DNA of 64,000 bases from Escherichia coli (GTDB lineage: Bacteria; Pseudomonadota; Gammaproteobacteria; Enterobacterales; Enterobacteriaceae). The stretch lies in the NCBI RefSeq assembly GCF_050920415.1, contig NZ_CP169309.1; one strand, 5' to 3'. Every line of letters begins with the position of its first letter. Position 1 is the first letter of the stretch. The position numbers were made by a program, and so were the translations under genes. The notes below the pieces were generated by a model. The model had not been told where the DNA came from. It made no database searches and saw only the letters and a program-made list of their open reading frames with translations. Of this stretch, positions 26,671 through 36,924 are shown piece after piece.

Positions 26671-27288
26671 TCACTCAGGATCCTTTTCGCGCTTTCTTTT
26701 GAATTTCGTCCAGATTTTTGTCTCCTGACGACGCCACAGACGCTGGATGTTGTCATGATGGCGCAGCAGGATCAGGCATGAGAGCATCGAAACCGGGAAG
26801 GTGAATTGTGGCTTAAACCACCAGACGTAAAATGGAGCAATCAGTGCGCTGACAATCGCTCCCAGCGACGAGTATCCGCTCAATAGCACGGTCAGTAACC
26901 AGGTTCCCGCCATTACTCCGGTGAGATCCCAGCCAATTGGTGCGATGGCACCAAAAGCGGTAGCAACGCCTTTTCCTCCTTTAAAACCGAAGAAAACGGG
27001 CCAGATGTGTCCAAGGCAGGCGGCGATGGCAATTAAGCCTAGCCAGAAGGGGCTGACACCTAATTCATACGCGCCCCAGACGGGCAACATTCCTTTCAGA
27101 ACGTCGAAAATCAGTACTGCTACGGCTGCTCCCTTGCCACCGATACGTAACACATTGGTTGCGCCAGGATTACCGGAGCCGCTGGTTCGCGGATCGGGCA
27201 GCCCACACAAGCGGCAAACCAGAATGGCACTGGAAATGGAGCCGCAGAGGTACGCGATGAGGATCATTCCAGGCGCGATTGCACTCAT
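26671..27288 (-). CDS. plsY: glycerol-3-phosphate acyltransferase PlsY
   Basis: 205 aa membrane protein [24 protein letters not shown]... Confidence 0.9.
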
Positions 27289-27392
27289 AAGCTGTTCCGT
27301 TTTGAAAATTCGTGTTCAACGATGAATCTGTGGATAATACGCACATTTCGCCGGAAGTGGTATCCGGTTAGCCAAAAAGCAGGCAGGACGTG

Positions 27393-27761
27393 ATGGATAT
27401 TGTATTTATAGAGCAACTTTCGGTAATCACCACTATTGGTGTTTACGACTGGGAACAGACCATCGAACAGAAGTTAGTGTTCGATATCGAAATGGCGTGG
27501 GATAACCGTAAAGCGGCGAAAAGTGATGATGTGGCGGATTGCCTCAGTTACGCTGACATTGCAGAAACGGTAGTCAGCCACGTCGAGGGCGCGCGTTTTG
27601 CGCTGGTGGAACGTGTGGCGGAAGAGGTGGCGGAGCTGCTGTTAGCACGCTTCAACTCGCCGTGGGTGCGTATCAAACTCAGCAAGCCAGGCGCAGTGGC
27701 GCGGGCGGCGAATGTTGGCGTCATCATTGAGCGTGGCAATAATCTGAAAGAAAATAATTAA
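27393..27761 (+). CDS. folB: dihydroneopterin aldolase FolB
   Basis: MDIVFIEQLSVITTIGVYDWEQTIEQKLVFDIEMAWD...; ORF track starts one codon earlier (27390). Confidence 0.92.
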   Translation: MDIVFIEQLSVITTIGVYDWEQTIEQKLVFDIEMAWDNRKAAKSDDVADCLSYADIAETVVSHVEGARFALVERVAEEVAELLLARFNSPWVRIKLSKPGAVARAANVGVIIERGNNLKENN

Positions 27762-27851
27762 TTTTACAGCTGTTAAACCAAACGGTTATAACCTGGTCAT
27801 ACTGCAGTAGTTTGGACAAGCGTTACATTTTTATAATTTAGGGGTTTATTG

Positions 27852-28673
27852 ATGAGCGATATGCACTCGCTGCTGATAGCGGCAATATTGGGTGTGGTCG
27901 AAGGATTGACAGAATTTCTGCCGGTATCCAGCACGGGCCATATGATTATTGTCGGTCACTTGTTGGGATTTGAGGGCGACACGGCGAAAACCTTTGAAGT
28001 CGTGATCCAGTTAGGATCAATTCTGGCGGTAGTAGTGATGTTCTGGCGGCGTCTGTTTGGCCTGATTGGCATTCACTTTGGTCGTCCGCTGCAACACGAA
28101 GGAGAAAGCAAAGGCCGTTTAACGCTGATCCACATTCTGCTTGGCATGATCCCAGCGGTAGTACTGGGGCTGTTGTTCCACGACACGATTAAGTCGTTGT
28201 TTAATCCAATAAATGTGATGTATGCGCTGGTCGTTGGCGGTCTGTTGCTGATTGCCGCCGAATGCCTGAAACCAAAAGAACCGCGTGCGCCGGGTCTCGA
28301 TGATATGACCTATCGTCAGGCGTTTATGATTGGCTGCTTCCAGTGTCTGGCGCTGTGGCCGGGTTTTTCACGCTCCGGGGCGACCATATCTGGCGGGATG
28401 CTGATGGGCGTGAGCCGTTACGCGGCTTCCGAGTTCTCGTTCCTGCTGGCGGTGCCGATGATGATGGGCGCAACGGCGCTCGATCTCTACAAAAGCTGGG
28501 GCTTCCTGACAACCGGCGATATCCCGATGTTTGCCGTTGGGTTTATCACCGCTTTTGTGGTGGCGCTGATAGCGATTAAAACCTTCCTGCAATTGATTAA
28601 GCGCATTTCGTTTATACCGTTCGCCATTTATCGCTTTATTGTGGCGGCTGCGGTGTATGTTGTGTTCTTTTGA
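27852..28673 (+). CDS. uppP: undecaprenyl-diphosphatase UppP (BacA)
   Basis: [30 protein letters not shown]..., polytopic membrane protein; ORF track starts one codon earlier. Confidence 0.92.
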
Positions 28674-28689
28674 TTGAGGAATAGTGTCG

Positions 28690-28730
28690 GATATGACGCT
28701 TGTGCGTCTTATCCGACCTGGCCGGTGTTT
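28690..28730. repeat. REP-like palindromic unit between uppP and cca
   Basis: gtcggatatgacgcttgtgcgtcttatccgacctggccgg. Confidence 0.6.
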
Positions 28731-28753
28731 GCAATAAATTGAAATTCAAGTGC

Positions 28754-29992
28754 TTAATCAGGCTTTGGACAACGTTGTTCCTTCCAGCTGGCTACCGCCG
28801 CAATCCGCCGTCGGGTCAGCTCCTCGCGAATCTCCACACCTTTAAATCCCGCTTCAACGACGTCTTTTGTCGGCACTGACTGCGCCACTTCCCAGGCTTC
28901 GCGCAACCAGCGGCCTTGCGGGTAGTCCACCGATTCAAAACCGGTTCTGCCACGCACGTCAGCCTCGCTGGTCAACGCCAGTTGCTCGACACGCTGCGGT
29001 TTACGCCAGGCGTCGATGGAATCAAATAATTTGACGATGGTTTTTGGGTTCAGCATTGGGAAGGTATGGATGAGATCGTGAAACTCAGCCACCAGTCTGG
29101 CTAAATCGCGAATTTCATTTGGCACGCGCAGACGCTGGCATAGTTGTTCCACTAATTTCACACCCGCCGGGCCGTGACCATGATGACGCGGCCAAAGTTC
29201 TGGCGGCGTCAGGCCTTTACCGAGATCGTGGCATAACGTTGCGAAACGGACATCGACCTGCGGACTCAGCATTGCCGCCATGGAGAGCGTCATTAAGGTG
29301 TGAATACCGGTGTCGATTTCCGGATGCCACTTGGCGGGGGCCGGAACGCCAAACAGGGCGTCAATTTCCGGGAATAGAACGCGCAGGGCGCCGCAATCGC
29401 GCAGCACCTGGAAGAACACTTGTGGATTGCGGGTGGTGAGGGCACTTTCCGTCTCTTTCCACACCCGTTCAGGCGTCAGGTGTTCCAGTTCACCCGCGTG
29501 AGTCATCTCGCGCATTAGCGCCAGAGTTTCATCAGCAATACGAAAACCGAGGTGGGCATAACGTGCAGCAAAACGCGCCACGCGCAGTACACGTAACGGA
29601 TCTTCGCCAAAAGCGGGGGAAACATGGCGCAACAGACGATTTTGCAGATCGCCCAGACCGTTGTACGGGTCGATAATCTCGCCGTTATCGTCCTGGGCCA
29701 GCGCATTAATGGTCAGATCGCGCCGCTTAAGATCATCTTCCAGCGTGACATCCGGTGCGGCATAGCAGGTAAAACCGGTGTAACCGGAACCGGATTTCCG
29801 TTCGGTACGTGCCAGCGCATACTCTTCATGCGTTTGCGGATGCAGAAAAACAGGAAAATCGCGGCCTACCTGCTGGTAGCCCGCGTCGAGCATCTCCTGT
29901 GGCGTACTACCGACTACCACCCAATCTCTGTCTTTGACCGGTAGCCCTAACAATGCATCCCGAACAGCACCACCGACCAGATAAATCTTCAC
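28754..29992 (-). CDS. cca: tRNA CCA-adding nucleotidyltransferase / HD-domain phosphohydrolase Cca
   Basis: 412 aa [28 protein letters not shown]... plus HD domain. Confidence 0.95.
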
Positions 29993-30055
29993 GCCATCAT
30001 CCCTTCGTCAAATACACAATTCCTAATAATAAGACAGTGCAACGAAGAAGGCGAT

Positions 30056-30676
30056 TTAGTTCATCCAGCGATCTTTACGTTTGCGCGTTGGGATCAGGTG
30101 CGGCAGTACCAGACCGAGCAGCAAGCCAAGCCCCAGCACGCCGCCACCATACATAAACCACTGCATGATGATGGTGCGCTGTTTGTCATCCAGCTGCACG
30201 CTGGCGGCATCGACCTTTTTCTGCGCGACAATCAGCTCGTTTTTCAGTTTCTGATTTTCTTCTTTTAACCCGTTGATCACGCTGTCGCTCTGCGCCACTT
30301 TTTGCTGCATTTCTGCGGTGCGCTGATTCCAGGTGTTATCGATATTGGTGAGCTTATCGGTCAGGGTTTTGACCTGATTTTCCAGATCTGGCACACGGGA
30401 GCGCAGGCTTGGCTCTGTGCTAAGTTGTTTCAACGGGATCCAGGCGGTACGGCCAGAGCTGTCTTTCACCTGGGCATAATTGGTGTTGGCGTCAGTTTGT
30501 AATAAGGTCACTTCCTCGCCGGCGTTAACCGTGCCCACGAGGCGATAATGGTCTCCCGGACCGCTACGGACCCAGGTATTCAGTTCGTCGGAAACATAGC
30601 GCGTTTCTTCAGCGTGTGAGACGGCAGTCGCGCTAAGTGCGAGTAAAGTTAATCCGATCAGGCGTAATTTTGGCAT
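30056..30676 (-). CDS. ygiM: SH3-domain membrane protein YgiM
   Basis: 206 aa; signal peptide, SH3b-like region, coiled-coil, C-terminal TM anchor. Confidence 0.85.
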   Translation of the reverse strand: MPKLRLIGLTLLALSATAVSHAEETRYVSDELNTWVRSGPGDHYRLVGTVNAGEEVTLLQTDANTNYAQVKDSSGRTAWIPLKQLSTEPSLRSRVPDLENQVKTLTDKLTNIDNTWNQRTAEMQQKVAQSDSVINGLKEENQKLKNELIVAQKKVDAASVQLDDKQRTIIMQWFMYGGGVLGLGLLLGLVLPHLIPTRKRKDRWMN

Positions 30677-31018
30677 CAGGCTGTCGTTATTGTCATGGAA
30701 AGTGGAACGATAGTAGTGGCATCAGTGTCGCTACGCAAAGCATTCGACATCAATCGGAATCCTCTGTGTCAGGTCTTGCCACTGCTTCAAACTTTTACGC
30801 CCGTCAAATTGCCCGTTGCATGGCAATTTGGCGCAAAATACTATCTACTGACAAAAAAGATCGCATTAAGTTCGCCGTTCATCGTCACTTATGTGACATA
30901 ACCGATAAGTAAAGGCCTTGACATCCTCCCCCACCTTCGCGCAAAGCGACTCAGGAGGGGGATTCCCTTGTCAGGGTAGCAATACGTTGCCGCATTGCCC
31001 GGTTCCTCGCTCGACGGC

Positions 31019-32224
31019 TTACGCCGCCTTACGGGCGCGTCCTTTACGGACTGACGGCAATATTTGTCCTGCCGCCATGACTTCAAAACCTGCTGTTAAT
31101 ATATTTCGAGCGCCGTTTACATCGGCGTTTGCCGTATAGCCGCACGCGGTACAGATAAAGCTCGCCTGCGCCCTGTGGTTATTTTTCGATGTATGCCCAC
31201 AACATGCGCATTTCTGACTGGTGTACGCCGGATTAATCGCCAGCACATCACCGCCGCGCCATGCCTGCTTATATTCGAGCTGGCGGCGCATTTCTGCCCA
31301 GCCCTGATCCAGTATCGCCCGGTTAAGACCTGATTTTGCCGCGACGTTGCGCCCCGGCTGGTCTACCGTACCCGCTGCTGATTTTGACATGTTCGAAACC
31401 TTTAAATCCTCAATGACTATCATCGCGTGGTTTTTGCTGATCGTCGTCGTGGTTTTATGAAGGTAATCGCGGCGGATGTTTGCGATATGAGAGTGGAAAC
31501 GGGAAATCTTCGCTTTCTGCTTTTTCCAGTTGGCGGAGAATTTAACCTTCCGGGCCAGATGGCGCTGTAAGCGAGCCAGCTTATCCTGATTTTTTTTAAA
31601 GCTGTTTACCGGTTTAAAGACCGTGCCGTCTGAAAGTGTTGCCAGCTTCGTTATACCTGCATCCAGGCCTATTGCGCTGGTCGATGCGTGAATCGGATCG
31701 GTAACAGCTAATTCGACCTGAAAAGACACATACCAGTGTCCGGCATGCTGGCTGATGGTGCAATTTTTAATGACGCCTTCAATCTTCCGGGACTGACGAA
31801 ATTTAACCCAGCCCAGTCCTGACGGGAGTTTCACACGGCCATAATCCAGCCCACAATATTTGCTGAAATTGACGAACCGAATAGAGTCGCAGCCTTTGGT
31901 TTTCTTTTTGAAAACGGGCTTTTCAGCCGTCAGGGATTTATCAAAACAGCGATCCCATGCGCTCCGCAGGTCTTTCAGTTTCTGCTGGAGGTTGTCAGTG
32001 TAACCCTCAGCAAGAAAGGCCAGCTCAGGGAGTTTTTTCCAGCCCGTAAGTCGTTTATTCAGGTCGAAAGCTGACGGAATTTTTCCGCCCGCGTCATGAA
32101 TGCTCAGTGTTTCATTCAGTGCATAGTTCCAGACAAAGCGAGCGCAACCGCACAACTGACGCAACCTTTGCGCCTGCTGGTCAGTGGGGTAGAGCCTGTA
32201 TTTATATGCTTTCTGGATTAACAT
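31019..32224 (-). CDS. tnpB: TnpB (OrfB_IS605) RuvC-like putative RNA-guided endonuclease
   Basis: 401 aa; MLIQKAYKYRLYPT N-terminus; RuvC-I IGLDAGITK (Asp), RuvC-II IVIEDLKV (Glu), C-terminal zinc ribbon CACCGH..CTACGY followed by ADVNGARNI (Asp). Confidence 0.9.
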   Translation of the reverse strand: MLIQKAYKYRLYPTDQQAQRLRQLCGCARFVWNYALNETLSIHDAGGKIPSAFDLNKRLTGWKKLPELAFLAEGYTDNLQQKLKDLRSAWDRCFDKSLTAEKPVFKKKTKGCDSIRFVNFSKYCGLDYGRVKLPSGLGWVKFRQSRKIEGVIKNCTISQHAGHWYVSFQVELAVTDPIHASTSAIGLDAGITKLATLSDGTVFKPVNSFKKNQDKLARLQRHLARKVKFSANWKKQKAKISRFHSHIANIRRDYLHKTTTTISKNHAMIVIEDLKVSNMSKSAAGTVDQPGRNVAAKSGLNRAILDQGWAEMRRQLEYKQAWRGGDVLAINPAYTSQKCACCGHTSKNNHRAQASFICTACGYTANADVNGARNILTAGFEVMAAGQILPSVRKGRARKAA

Positions 32225-32236
32225 TTTGCATTCAGT

Positions 32237-32689
32237 ATGTGGTTATTTAGAATGTACAATATATCCACATTTTTTTGGGAGGATCAATACGTGTGCGAAA
32301 TCAATCGTTCACGCTATTCAGCTTACCTGTTGCATGTTCACGTTGTTTTTATGACAAAATACCGCCGTCCAGTTTTTGGTGAATTGCATCATGCAAACAT
32401 GCGTCAGTATGTAGCGGAGGTATGCGCGGACTTTGGCGCCGAGTTAAAGGAATGTGACGGCGAGGCAGATCATGTTCACATGCTGATTGAATACCCACCG
32501 TTGGTGCAACTCACAAAGCTGGTAAACAGCCTTAAGTCCGTTACCAGTAGGCGGCTGCGGAATGATTTTATTGATTTGCGCGCCGCGTATTCAAAGCCCG
32601 TACTCTGGTCACGCTCTTATTTCATCGGTTCATGTGGTGGAGCACCGCTGGAAGTTGTGAAAAAGTATATTCAGAATCAGCGTGGCTGA
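32237..32689 (+). CDS. tnpA: IS200/IS605 TnpA, Y1 HUH single-strand transposase
   Basis: 150 aa; HUH motif DHVHMLIEYP and catalytic Tyr region LWSRSYFIGSCGGAPLEVVKKYIQNQ, closely resembling IS608 TnpA; exact start codon uncertain. Confidence 0.88.
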   Translation: MWLFRMYNISTFFWEDQYVCEINRSRYSAYLLHVHVVFMTKYRRPVFGELHHANMRQYVAEVCADFGAELKECDGEADHVHMLIEYPPLVQLTKLVNSLKSVTSRRLRNDFIDLRAAYSKPVLWSRSYFIGSCGGAPLEVVKKYIQNQRG

Positions 32690-32759
32690 TAAACTGCGGG
32701 CTTAACAGCCCAAATTCCCCTCCCGCCTACGTTGGGGGGGAGTACCCAGTGGAGGAAGG

Positions 32760-34061
32760 ATGGCTCAGGAAATCGAATTAAAGTTTATTGTTAATCACAG
32801 TGCCGTTGAGGCGTTGCGTGACCATCTCAATACGCTGGGCGGCGAGCACCATGACCCCGTGCAGTTGCTGAATATTTACTACGAAACGCTGGATAACTGG
32901 CTGCGTGGGCACGACATGGGCTTACGTATCCGTGGCGAAAACGGTCGCTATGAGATGACCATGAAAGTTGCAGGAAGAGTGACAGGCGGCTTACACCAGC
33001 GCCCGGAATATAACGTGGCGTTGAGCGAACCGACGCTCGACCTGGCGCAGTTACCGACGGAAGTCTGGCCGAACGGTGAGTTACCAGCCGATCTCGCGTC
33101 CCGCGTGAAGCCACTGTTCAGCACCGATTTTTATCGCGAAAAATGGTTGGTGGAGGTCGATGGCAGCAGCATTGAAATCGCTCTCGATCAGGGCGAGGTG
33201 AAAGCGGGTGAATTTGCTGAGCCTATCTGCGAGCTGGAACTGGAGTTGCTTAGCGGCGATACGCGCGCGGTACTGAAACTGGCGAACCAACTGGTATCGC
33301 AAACCGGATTACGTCAGGGCAGCCTGAGCAAAGCCGCGCGCGGCTATAATCTGGCGCAGGGCAATCCCGCGCGTGAAATCAAACCGACCACCATTTTGCA
33401 TGTTGCGGCAAAAGCTGATGTGGAACAGGGGCTGGAAGCGGCGCTCGAGCTGGCGTTAGCGCAATGGCAGTATCATGAAGAACTGTGGGTACGTGGCAAC
33501 GATACGGCGAAAGAGCAGGTGCTGGCAGCCATCGGTCTGGTCCGTCATACGCTGATGCTGTTCGGCGGTATTGTGCCGCGTAAAGCGAGCACTCACTTAC
33601 GTGATTTGCTGACTCAATGCGAAGCGACCATCGCTTCAGCGGTGTCTGCCGTAACGGCGGTCTACTCTACCGAAACGGCGATGGCGAAGCTGGCGTTGAC
33701 CGAATGGCTGGTAAGCAAAGCCTGGCAGCCGTTTTTAGATGCCAAAGCGCAGGGCAAAATCAGCGATTCTTTCAAACGCTTTGCCGATATCCATCTTTCC
33801 CGCCATGCCGCTGAACTGAAAAGCGTTTTCTGCCAGCCATTAGGCGATCGCTACCGTGACCAATTGCCGCGCCTGACGCGTGACATTGACTCAATATTGT
33901 TGCTGGCGGGTTACTACGATCCTCTCGTCGCGCAAGCCTGGCTGGAGAACTGGCAGGGACTGCGTCATGCCATTGCGACCGGGCAACGCATTGAAATTGA
34001 ACATTTCCGTAATGAGGCAAACAATCAGGAACCGTTCTGGTTGCACAGCGGAAAACGTTAA
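32760..34061 (+). CDS. ygiF: inorganic triphosphatase YgiF (CYTH + CHAD domains)
   Basis: 433 aa [24 protein letters not shown]... typical CYTH N-terminus. Confidence 0.9.
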
Positions 34062-34083
34062 TCAGGCAAGGATAAAATCGCTT

Positions 34084-36924
34084 ATGAAGCCGCTCTCTTC
34101 ACCGTTACAGCAGTACTGGCAGACCGTTGTTGAGCGGCTGCCAGCGCCTTTAGCCGAGGAATCACTTAGTGCACAGGCGAAGTCAGTACTTACTTTTAGT
34201 GATTTTCTGCAGGACAGCATAATTGCGCATCCAGAGTGGCTGACGGAACTGGAAAGCCAACCGCCGCAGGCCGACGAATGGCAGCATTACACTGCATGGT
34301 TGCAGGAGGCGCTCAGTAATGTGAGTGACGAAGCCGGGTTAATGCGCGAGCTGCGGCTATTCCGGCGGCGCATTATGGTGCGCATCGCCTGGGCGCAAAC
34401 GCTGGCACTGGTTACTGAAGAGAGCATTTTGCAGCAGCTCAGTCATCTGGCGGAGACGCTGATTGTTGCGGCGCGTGACTGGCTGTATGACGCTTGCTGC
34501 CGCGAGTGGGGAACGCCGTGCAATGCGCAGGGCGAAGCGCAACCGCTGCTGATTTTAGGCATGGGTAAGCTGGGCGGTGGGGAGCTGAATTTCTCCTCAG
34601 ATATCGATCTGATTTTTGCCTGGCCGGAACATGGTTGCACGCAGGGCGGACGCAGGGAACTGGATAACGCTCAGTTCTTTACCCGCATGGGTCAGCGGCT
34701 GATTAAAGTGCTGGATCAACCAACGCAGGATGGCTTCGTCTATCGCGTGGATATGCGACTGCGTCCGTTTGGCGAAAGTGGCCCGCTGGTGCTGAGCTTT
34801 GCGGCACTGGAAGACTATTACCAGGAGCAGGGGCGCGACTGGGAGCGATACGCCATGGTCAAGGCGCGGATTATGGGCGATAGCGACGGCGTCTATGCTA
34901 ACGAGTTGCGTGCGATGCTGCGCCCGTTTGTTTTCCGCCGTTACATCGATTTCAGCGTGATCCAGTCGCTGCGCAACATGAAAGGAATGATTGCCCGTGA
35001 AGTGCGCCGACGCGGTTTGACCGACAACATCAAACTTGGCGCGGGTGGCATTCGCGAAATTGAATTTATCGTCCAGGTATTCCAGCTCATTCGCGGCGGG
35101 CGCGAACCGTCGCTGCAATCGCGCTCTTTACTGCCAACGCTCAGCGCCATTGCCGCGCTGCATCTGCTTTCTGAAAACGATGCTGAACAATTGCGAGTGG
35201 CGTATCTGTTCCTGCGGCGCCTGGAAAACCTGCTGCAAAGCATTAACGACGAACAAACCCAGACACTTCCTTCTGATGAGCTTAACCGTGCGCGGCTGGC
35301 GTGGGCGATGGACTTTGCTGACTGGCCGCAACTGACCGGGGCGCTGACCGGACATATGACCAATGTGCGCCGGGTGTTTAACGAATTGATTGGCGATGAC
35401 GAAAGCGAAACTCAGGAAGAGTCGCTGTCGGAACAGTGGCGTGAGCTGTGGCAGGATGCGTTGCAGGAAGATGACACTACGCCAGTACTGGCGCATCTTA
35501 GCGAAGATGATCGCAAACAGGTGCTAACACTGATTGCCGATTTCCGCAAAGAGCTGGATAAGCGCACAATCGGGCCGCGAGGACGTCAGGTGCTCGACCA
35601 TCTGATGCCGCATCTGCTAAGTGATGTCTGTGCGCGTGAAGACGCTGCTGTCACGCTGTCGCGCATTACCGCCTTGCTGGTGGGGATTGTTACCCGCACT
35701 ACCTATTTAGAATTGCTTAGTGAATTCCCCGCGGCGCTTAAGCATTTGATTTCTCTGTGTGCCGCATCGCCGATGATTGCCAGCCAACTGGCGCGTTATC
35801 CATTATTGCTGGACGAACTGCTCGATCCAAACACTCTCTACCAGCCGACGGCGACGGATGCCTACCGTGATGAACTGCGCCAGTATTTGCTGCGCGTGCC
35901 GGAAGATGACGAAGAGCAACAGCTTGAGGCGCTGCGTCAGTTCAAACAGGCGCAACTTTTACGCATCGCGGCGGCGGATATCGCCGGTACGCTACCGGTC
36001 ATGAAAGTGAGCGATCACTTAACCTGGCTGGCAGAAGCCATGATAGATGCTGTCGTACAACAGGCATGGGTTCAAATGGTTGCCCGCTACGGTAAGCCAA
36101 ATCACCTGAACGAACGCGAAGGGCGTGGTTTTGCGGTGGTCGGCTACGGCAAGCTGGGCGGCTGGGAGTTAGGCTACAGTTCCGATCTTGACCTGATCTT
36201 CCTCCATGATTGCCCAATGGATGCAATGACTGACGGCGAGCGGGAAATCGACGGACGACAGTTTTATCTGCGTCTGGCGCAACGCATTATGCATCTGTTC
36301 AGTACGCGCACCTCTTCCGGCATTTTGTATGAAGTGGATGCTCGACTGCGTCCGTCCGGGGCGGCGGGAATGCTGGTCACCTCTGCAGAAGCGTTTGCCG
36401 ATTATCAGAAAAACGAGGCCTGGACGTGGGAACATCAGGCGCTGGTGCGTGCGCGTGTAGTGTACGGCGATCCGCAGCTCACCGCGCACTTTGACGCGGT
36501 GCGTCGCGAGATTATGACGCTGCCGCGTGAAGGTAAAACTCTGCAAACGGAAGTGCGGGAAATGCGCGAGAAAATGCGCGCTCATCTCGGCAATAAACAT
36601 CGCGATCGCTTTGATATCAAAGCCGATGAAGGCGGAATTACCGATATCGAATTTATTACCCAATATCTGGTGTTGCGCTACGCTCATGAAAAACCGAAGT
36701 TAACGCGCTGGTCAGACAACGTGCGTATTCTGGAGCTGCTGGCGCAAAACGACATTATGGAAGAGCAGGAAGCGATGGTGCTGACCCGTGCTTACACTAC
36801 GCTGCGCGATGAACTTCATCATCTGGCATTACAGGAATTGCCGGGCCATGTGTCGGAGGATTGCTTCACCGCAGAGCGTGATCTGGTGCGGGCAAGCTGG
36901 CAGAAGTGGCTGGTGGAAGAATGA
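34084..36924 (+). CDS. glnE: bifunctional glutamine synthetase adenylyltransferase/adenylyl-removing enzyme GlnE
   Basis: 946 aa from [20 protein letters not shown]; the 1014 aa ORF-track call from 33880 overlaps the ygiF 3' end and is an upstream extension. Confidence 0.93.

Follow-up and report, generated by a model that had tools for sequence, protein, structure and literature searches.

A 64-kb window of an Escherichia coli chromosome (contig NZ_CP169309.1; "window" denotes this whole stretch, to which positions refer) carries the insertion sequence (IS) ISEc41, whose minus strand is predicted to encode, at 30918-31117, the scaffold of an omega-RNA that would guide the nuclease TnpB. We consider it likely, judging from sequence features, that this omega-RNA/TnpB module is correctly delimited here and probably functional. 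A preliminary description of the DNA had suggested that the element may encode a programmable RNA-guided nuclease (OMEGA system), and the observed features are in keeping with that suggestion at the sequence level: the element has defined boundaries, TnpB has intact domains and an intact active site, a covarying scaffold runs up to the boundary, the flank beyond it is variable, and a candidate target-adjacent motif (TAM), CCAT, stands with its target in the empty site. The stretch in question is the right end of a known IS, which has the ygiM promoter region on one side and the ygiF start codon on the other.

Boundaries, predicted scaffold and predicted guide of ISEc41

The gene order in the window, bacA-cca-ygiM-[ISEc41]-ygiF-glnE, is chromosomal, and the insertion ends were set by alignment with the unoccupied K-12 locus (…TAAGTAAAGGCC|ATGGCTCAGG…), where the window has 1,842 bp extra. 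Together with the naming in RefSeq, this alignment identifies 30918-32759 as a complete IS200/IS605-family element, ISEc41, of 1,842 bp. The gap in the K-12 empty site (…GAGCCAT|GGCCTTTAC…) is filled exactly by ISEc41, and neither a target-site duplication nor terminal inverted repeats are present. Read along the tnpB (minus) strand, the layout is 5'-…GAGCCAT | CCTTCCTCC… (left end), tnpA in antisense, tnpB, and the right end …GGAGGATGTCAA | GGCCTTTACTTATCGGTTAT…-3'. RefSeq labels the proteins of identical copies "IS200/IS605-like element ISEc41 family transposase" and "RNA-guided endonuclease InsQ/TnpB family protein"; ISEc41 is thus already named and annotated as a TnpB-family element, and TnpB/omega-RNA systems are well established. 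In the literature, we found ISEc41 only in three papers on resistance genomics and no link to TnpB for ISEc41, CFT073, Nissle or ATCC 25922, in a search that did not cover the ISfinder-wide screen of 78 TnpB systems (Xiang et al.).

The predicted scaffold region consists of the 3'-terminal 99 nt of tnpB with its stop codon (31019-31117) and the 101 nt of the non-coding right end, with a structured core from stem 1 to the right end at 30918-31077. It was delimited with a covariance model, R1, built from 26 relatives, with the window and its nearest relative (L039b, on Klebsiella and E. coli plasmids) left out. A scan of the 64-kb window with R1 gave a single significant match, 30918-31117 on the minus strand, over the full model (45 bits, E = 1.6e-11; next-best match, E = 2), and this match terminates exactly at the boundary set by the empty site. 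The preliminary description had placed the scaffold on the minus strand around 30915-31150; the strand and the place hold, and the end moves from 30915 to 30918.

Helices of the scaffold covary. Pairs were counted in a MAFFT alignment of 29 sequences under a six-helix structure of 30 pairs, in which 96.1% of paired cells can pair, compared with 41-52% when the partners are slid by 1-3 columns. Compensatory changes occur in 13 of the 30 pairs, and the observed values were reached by none of 500 shuffles. The 163-nt scaffold core folds into six hairpins (-78.7 kcal/mol, z = -4.8). When the window is compared with L039b, identity is 85% over the 101 nt of non-coding right end and 55% at third codon positions of tnpB.

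Following the minus strand toward the terminus, a stem-1-like hairpin (UGGCGGCAG-GACAAAUA-UUGCCGUCA, 31052-31077) exposes the loop GACA at 31065-31068 and shows a switch from GC to AU at synonymous sites in seven sequences. The non-coding middle of the scaffold (30965-31012) holds the motif GAGCGAGGAACC at 31001-31012, stem 3 at 30979-30998, and a small hairpin (CCCUGACAAGGG, 30965-30976) that covaries from UA to CG in eight sequences. The right-end subterminal hairpin at 30927-30962 is assigned from its fold and covariation as stem 4 of the RNA and is followed by the tail AGGAUGUCAA (30927-30918); compensatory changes affect three of its pairs, and its layout parallels that of ISDra2 stem 4 with its tetraloop. 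This hairpin is the TnpA-binding DNA hairpin as well as RNA stem 4. Relatives show a corresponding series of conserved blocks upstream of the terminus, namely GAAGCAGGAACC, a variable stem-loop, the small hairpin, GGRAUCC and the subterminal hairpin. However, tnpB stops earlier in the window and in L039b than in other relatives. The AGGAACC motif, which lies inside the coding sequence in relatives, follows the stop codon in the window, and stem 3 and the small hairpin are likewise non-coding here. That these parts have nonetheless been kept argues for a function at the level of the nucleic acid, not of the protein. A C-to-G change at 30997 that breaks one pair of stem 3 is found in two other carriers, Nissle and A25.

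By analogy with ISDra2, a pseudoknot is predicted in the ISEc41 RNA between GACA (31065-31068) and UGUC (30920-30923, RNA positions -6 to -3), and the loop, GGRCA, can pair with UGUC at -6 to -3 in all 29 sequences. Other partners that RNAalifold proposed for the tail GGAUGUC, either GAUAU (the Asp codon) or AUAUUU, were set aside for the GGRCA loop because its position is homologous to the solved ISDra2 pseudoknot; the 3' strand of the pseudoknot is invariant, and covariation cannot choose among the long-range pairings. A first fold of the whole region, which paired guide nucleotides with upstream RNA, was considered spurious. A promoter and terminator scan found neither an internal promoter for the RNA nor a terminator after the right end, a result that fits processing from the tnpB mRNA without being evidence for it.

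The predicted guide, 5'-GGCCUUUACUUAUCGG-3' (30902-30917, minus strand, 16 nt), lies directly 3' of the invariant terminus GGAGGATGTCAA. Its length was taken by analogy with ISDra2 (PMC10097598), and a 20-nt guide would reach 30898 (…UUAU). The sequences beyond the terminus are unrelated in about 40 loci, as expected if the flank supplies a site-specific guide. The guide had initially been put in the flank at about 30895-30914, toward the ygiM promoter; the flank and its direction proved right, and the position was offset by 3 nt, the guide starting at 30917 and ending at 30902 or 30898, depending on its length. The first predicted guide nucleotide (30917) is polymorphic among carriers, being A in WL297 (L046) and G elsewhere. 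The gene ygiM lies downstream of the right end, on the same strand as the predicted RNA.

At the opposite end of the element, the predicted TAM and TnpA target, 5'-CCAT-3', occupies 32760-32763 on the minus strand (ATGG, the ygiF start codon plus G, on the plus strand). It adjoins the left end (CCAT|C…) at all five independent junctions of the window's clade, and its presence in the K-12 empty site places it outside the element, as part of the target. Recognition of CCAT by TnpB is predicted by analogy, on the general rule that TAM and TnpA target are the same. The K-12 empty site CCAT|GGCCTTTACTTATCGG is a perfect match to the predicted TAM and guide, whereas the window contains no CCAT plus guide match. 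The guide match at the right end is preceded by TCAA rather than CCAT, so the occupied locus would not be a target.

The same junction bears on ygiF. As CCAT is the complement of ATGG, the insertion point is position -1 of the ygiF start codon, and the left-end terminus puts GGAGGAAGG immediately upstream of the ygiF ATG (32745-32765). ISEc41 parts ygiF from the intergenic promoter region found in K-12, leaving the gene co-directional with tnpA.

In the mechanism that we infer, which takes in transcription and processing of the RNA, its 5' end, the exact guide length and nuclease activity, the minus-strand scaffold would start inside the last ~100 nt of tnpB, cross the 101 nt of non-coding right end with its subterminal hairpin, and stop at 30918. 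Transcription would continue into the flank, making the next ~16-20 nt from 30917 downward (GGCCUUUACUUAUCGG…) the guide. TnpB would then bind the omega-RNA and cut double-stranded DNA bearing CCAT followed by a guide match, a combination that only an unoccupied site, such as CCAT|GGCCTTTACTTATCGG in K-12, is predicted to offer. The mechanism of TnpB has been described in relatives (PMC8612924, PMC10055086, PMC10278001), and a TAM and target recreated in the empty site are the basis of TnpB-mediated retention and homing (PMC8612924, PMC10055086, PMC11870625). As in other IS605 elements, the likely role would be to cut the empty site left by TnpA excision, or an empty homologous site, whereupon recombination would copy ISEc41 back.

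TnpB, TnpA and the left end

The tnpB gene (31019-32224, minus strand) encodes a full-length protein of 401 amino acids. The preliminary description had reported that all three RuvC acidic residues and the CxxC..CxxC zinc ribbon are retained, and this was borne out: D188 (IGLDAG), E272 (VIEDLK), D368 (NADVNG) and the zinc cysteines C339/C342 and C358/C361 are all intact, and all seven are invariant in an alignment of 22 sequences (21 relatives at 47-78% identity plus ISDra2 TnpB). A phmmer search against PDB sequences aligned residues 2-379 with ISDra2 TnpB (8h1j/8bf8; E = 8.5e-49), placing D188, E272 and D368 opposite D (GVDVG), E (TEHLK) and D (RDENAALNI), which we take to be its catalytic residues D191/E278/D361. 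Pfam recognizes HTH_OrfB_IS605 (PF12323), OrfB_IS605 (PF01385) and Cas12f1-like_TNB (PF07282), and the NCBIfam model guided_TnpB (NF040570) scores 356 bits (cutoff, 100).

A 15-amino-acid insertion conserved throughout the clade (SAAGTVDQPGRNVAAKSG), termed the "lid", lies in the loop after E272, at a position corresponding to ISDra2 TnpB residues 281-296, which are disordered in the structure (PMC10097598). An AlphaFold2 model of TnpB (predicted local distance difference test, 80.8) is of low confidence only at 280-297 and 388-401. Its best PDB match by Foldseek is the ISDra2 ternary complex (8h1j_A, E = 1.4e-28), such that the structure prediction, one of the checks proposed at the outset, points to a TnpB fold. 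Pfam, NCBIfam, phmmer and Foldseek together recover the TnpB architecture of HTH/WED-REC, split RuvC and zinc finger.

The Y1/HUH transposase gene tnpA lies on the plus strand at 32291-32689, divergent from tnpB, and its open reading frame (ORF) has visible HVH and Y motifs. RefSeq places the start at ATG 32237 (a 150-amino-acid ORF, 32237-32689), which falls inside a promoter-like site, TTTGCA-17-TAGAAT (32225-32253). GTG 32291 has GGAGGA 6 nt ahead, and the resulting 132-amino-acid protein fits the IS200 TnpA profile from its second position (NF033573, 139.9 bits, cutoff 55; profile positions 2-126 from residue 5 of the 132-amino-acid form). The start is therefore probably GTG 32291 rather than ATG 32237. 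The left end (32690-32759, minus strand) forms an imperfect C-rich/G-rich hairpin (ACTCCCCCCC…GGCGGGAGGGGAAT).

Distribution in E. coli and competing explanations

A megablast search of 5,426 complete E. coli genomes found the flanks everywhere and ISEc41 in about 146-148 genomes, including CFT073, Nissle 1917 and ATCC 25922. Five carrier lineages (the window, WL297, EC42405, Nissle and A25) were compared in detail, and translation of the ISEc41 ORFs showed no stop or frameshift in any of them; tnpB is an ordinary coding sequence in 52 full-length copies among the matches listed.

About eight E. coli genomes carry, at the same ygiF/ygiM site, a 63-bp stub (e.g., RM14723, L044 1483-1545; window 30917/32760). 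In the stub, the outermost 24 nt of the left end and the terminal ~40-45 nt of the right end meet at the C-rich hairpin arms; tnpA, tnpB and the scaffold are all missing, which gives it the look of a PATE-like deletion derivative.

Several observations weigh against a functional omega-RNA/TnpB module. None of the 4,227 Rfam 15 models gave a match at E ≤ 10 on either strand of 29500-34000; of the covariance-model search that had been suggested for checking the scaffold, the Rfam part thus yielded nothing, and it was the model made from relatives that recovered a conserved scaffold. The middle of the scaffold departs from the clade consensus both in the window and in L039b, with several non-canonical model pairs and a 39-nt insertion, and the R1 score comes partly from coding-sequence and TnpA-site homology, not RNA function. 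In the left-end hairpin of the window copy, a C·C mismatch occupies the position of a G-C pair in L040 and L005, and the hairpin is not significant as a DNA fold. When the TnpB model is compared with solved TnpB chains, the template modeling (TM) score is only 0.41-0.52 (root mean square deviation [rmsd], about 10 Å), which we attribute to lobe orientation in an RNA-free model; at the domain level, 8ex9 alone matches closely (TM, 0.90; rmsd, 1.9 Å). Among the five lineages, the variable codons of tnpB comprise 13 non-synonymous and 6 synonymous (dN/dS about 0.64; P about 0.25 against neutrality by a rough binomial estimate), unlike those of tnpA (1 and 3), a pattern of weak constraint on tnpB within E. 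coli. Moreover, the right-end junction is identical in 146 of the 148 full-length copies, and ISEc41 is single-copy in 60 genome records (the best 60 of 169 with a match); given the single copy and shared junction, transposition appears to be rare.

These signals are mixed and could mean that the element is structurally intact and functionally decaying in E. coli, with TnpB and its omega-RNA idle and the ORF surviving only through recent insertion. The excess of non-synonymous changes in tnpB next to a tnpA that looks constrained, the single copies at essentially one chromosomal site, the weakened left-end hairpin of the window copy, the broken stem 3 pair in Nissle and the stubs would all suit decay. 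Nonetheless, we regard it as unlikely: no stop or frameshift interrupts the ORFs of the five lineages, tnpB is an ordinary coding sequence in the 52 full-length copies among the matches listed, the catalytic and zinc residues are all kept, the non-coding scaffold is far more conserved across species than synonymous sites, and the codon counts are too small to tell a dN/dS of 0.64 from 0.3 or 1.

A different reading would treat the conserved structure at 30918-31100 purely as single-stranded DNA signals for TnpA (the right-end hairpin and cleavage site), with no functional guide RNA. The subterminal hairpin and …TCAA terminus resemble the recognition and cleavage signals of IS608 TnpA, the right-end hairpin also folds as DNA (z = -2.45), and its covariation cannot separate DNA from RNA. 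However, conservation and covariation reach about 110 nt upstream of the hairpin, across AGGAACC, stem 3, the small hairpin and the stem-1-like hairpin with its seven GC-to-AU switches, whereas TnpA needs much less than this. The 3' part is also in register with the ISDra2 omega-RNA, pseudoknot partner included, and signals for TnpA alone thus seem a very improbable account. Hardly any weight falls on the idea that TnpB has been exapted as a nuclease-dead, RNA-guided DNA binder (TldR-like) whose flank-derived guide regulates ygiM or ygiF. In its favor are the complementarity of the guide to DNA lying between ygiF and the ygiM promoter region and the fixation of the element at a single locus; yet tnpA and both ends are kept, TnpB is full length and retains its zinc finger, and the TCAA ahead of the guide match in the occupied locus leaves no TAM-flanked target in cis. 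We rejected this reading because the RuvC D-E-D triad is intact. An intact omega-RNA/TnpB module, therefore, is the reading that we prefer.

How such a module came to occupy one site in diverged genomes is a separate question. In a comparison over window 26918-36759, ISEc41 copies differ by 0.33-0.81% among the five lineages, whereas their 3-kb flanks are 1.5-5.5% diverged toward ygiF/glnE and 0.3-3.9% diverged toward ygiM/cca, with flank haplotypes diverging up to within about 55-170 bp of the left end. In Nissle, which bears the IS, the ygiF-side flank is nearer to that of the IS-free K-12 than to those of other carriers. Hence, ISEc41 is younger than its surroundings yet sits at one nucleotide position, which fits horizontal spread into a single site. 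It is possible, although we hold the idea only tentatively, that this spread between lineages occurred by guide-RNA-directed homing, in the manner of a natural gene drive. The guide plus CCAT perfectly matches the K-12 empty site, and the flank region (counted as a region rather than as the exact target) is conserved in nearly all genomes. Alternatively, repeated ordinary homologous recombination followed by linkage erosion, or repeated TnpA insertion at a strongly preferred site, may have produced the same pattern.

Finding a young IS at a single site within older flanks could serve as a field signature of homing. Standard laboratory and clinical strains of E. coli (CFT073, Nissle 1917 and ATCC 25922) each contain ISEc41 as a single copy, with TnpA, TnpB and omega-RNA apparently complete, a concrete guide prediction and CCAT as an unusual predicted TAM, and the natural target in K-12 would make retention and homing testable in the native species by simple crosses. 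The general picture of TnpB/omega-RNA systems is left unchanged by these results.

Relatives and known systems

A scan of a genome collection recovered 36 loci with TnpB relatives at 46-80% identity (Aeromonas, Xenorhabdus, Yersinia, Morganella, Serratia, Acidithiobacillus and others), and plasmid searches added more. A sister clade of enterobacterial IS605-family elements (L008-L042, including "insQ" of the IncI2 plasmid TP114, Yersinia ruckeri and Morganella) has TnpB proteins 56-59% identical to that of ISEc41. It shares with ISEc41 an identical terminus GGAGGATGTCAA, the GAAGCAGGAACC motif, stem 3, a UUUA/UUCA-looped stem 4 and the lid insertion. In contrast, its tnpB frame reads through AGGAACC, whereas the window's clade has the earlier stop and extra hairpins, and its left ends lie at TTAC or TTAT rather than CCAT. 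To judge by these sequences, different left-end motifs with a shared terminus would imply a coordinated switch of TnpA target and TnpB TAM.

Right-end relatives were found on 2,065 plasmid records, for the most part conjugative plasmids from Klebsiella, Escherichia and Salmonella. The tnpB genes of L010, L015 and L017 contain in-frame stop codons, while their right ends are fully conserved. An E. coli IncK2/Z plasmid, pEc631_1 (L043, ~2445-2550), carries ~105 nt of a right end that has lost its 5' part and extends from CAGACCGCCCGTTGAAGCAGGAACC to GGATGTCAA; this remnant is identical to the L040 element and has no tnpB upstream. L039 contains two related elements 446 bp apart.

Among classical elements, IS605 and IS608 of Helicobacter pylori resemble ISEc41 in having a Y1/HUH TnpA, subterminal hairpins, insertion 3' of a tetranucleotide without duplication, and a TCAA right end, and IS605 likewise has divergent tnpA and tnpB. 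The IS608 target is TTAC, compared with CCAT for ISEc41, and the DNA sequences of IS605 and IS608 are unrelated to ISEc41.

The closest well-characterized counterpart is ISDra2 of Deinococcus radiodurans (PMC8612924; PMC10097598; PDB 8h1j/8exa/8bf8), whose TnpB has the same domain order, D-E-D triad and CxxC…CxxC motif at about 36% amino acid identity; of the two proteins, only that of the ISEc41 clade has the 15-amino-acid loop insertion. In both elements, the RNA comes from the tnpB 3' end plus the right end, with the flank as guide, as predicted for ISEc41. The scaffold of the ISDra2 omega-RNA (also called reRNA) is 116 nt long and comprises four stems, a pseudoknot between -5 to -3 and -105 to -103, and a UUUA tetraloop at -20 to -17 (PMC10097598). 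As a stand-in for its right end, we used an ISDra2-like element on a Deinococcus aquaticus plasmid (TnpB 82% identical), whose tail fits the published numbering base for base. R1 aligns end-to-end with this right end as a weak but top match (E = 0.003), with …GAAUC-stem 4-loop-stem 4-AGG..UCAA in register. In ISDra2, the Gly codon that follows Ala-Ala supplies the pseudoknot strand, and the homologous codon in the ISEc41 clade lies within the loop of the stem-1-like hairpin (GGRCA). Thus, the predicted pseudoknot partners in ISEc41 match those of ISDra2, namely the last nucleotides before the guide and this Gly codon.

The two elements differ in their TAMs (TTGAT in ISDra2; predicted CCAT in ISEc41), in their tails, with AGGAUGUCAA of ISEc41 being 2 nt longer than AGGUUCAA of ISDra2, and in their structured cores, which extend over about 160 nt in ISEc41 versus 116 nt in ISDra2, the middle part being different. 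The tnpA and tnpB genes, divergent in ISEc41, are co-directional in ISDra2 (PMC12477157), and activity is demonstrated for ISDra2 and predicted for ISEc41. The role proposed here for ISEc41 is the same as that of TnpB/IscB in the homing of Geobacillus stearothermophilus IS605-family elements (PMC10055086) and in an IS gene-drive model (PMC11870625), in which TAM and TnpA target coincide and the joint left by excision restores the target and drives recombinational re-copying. Homing is experimentally shown in those systems, whereas ISEc41 offers the sequence prerequisites and a population-genetic pattern.

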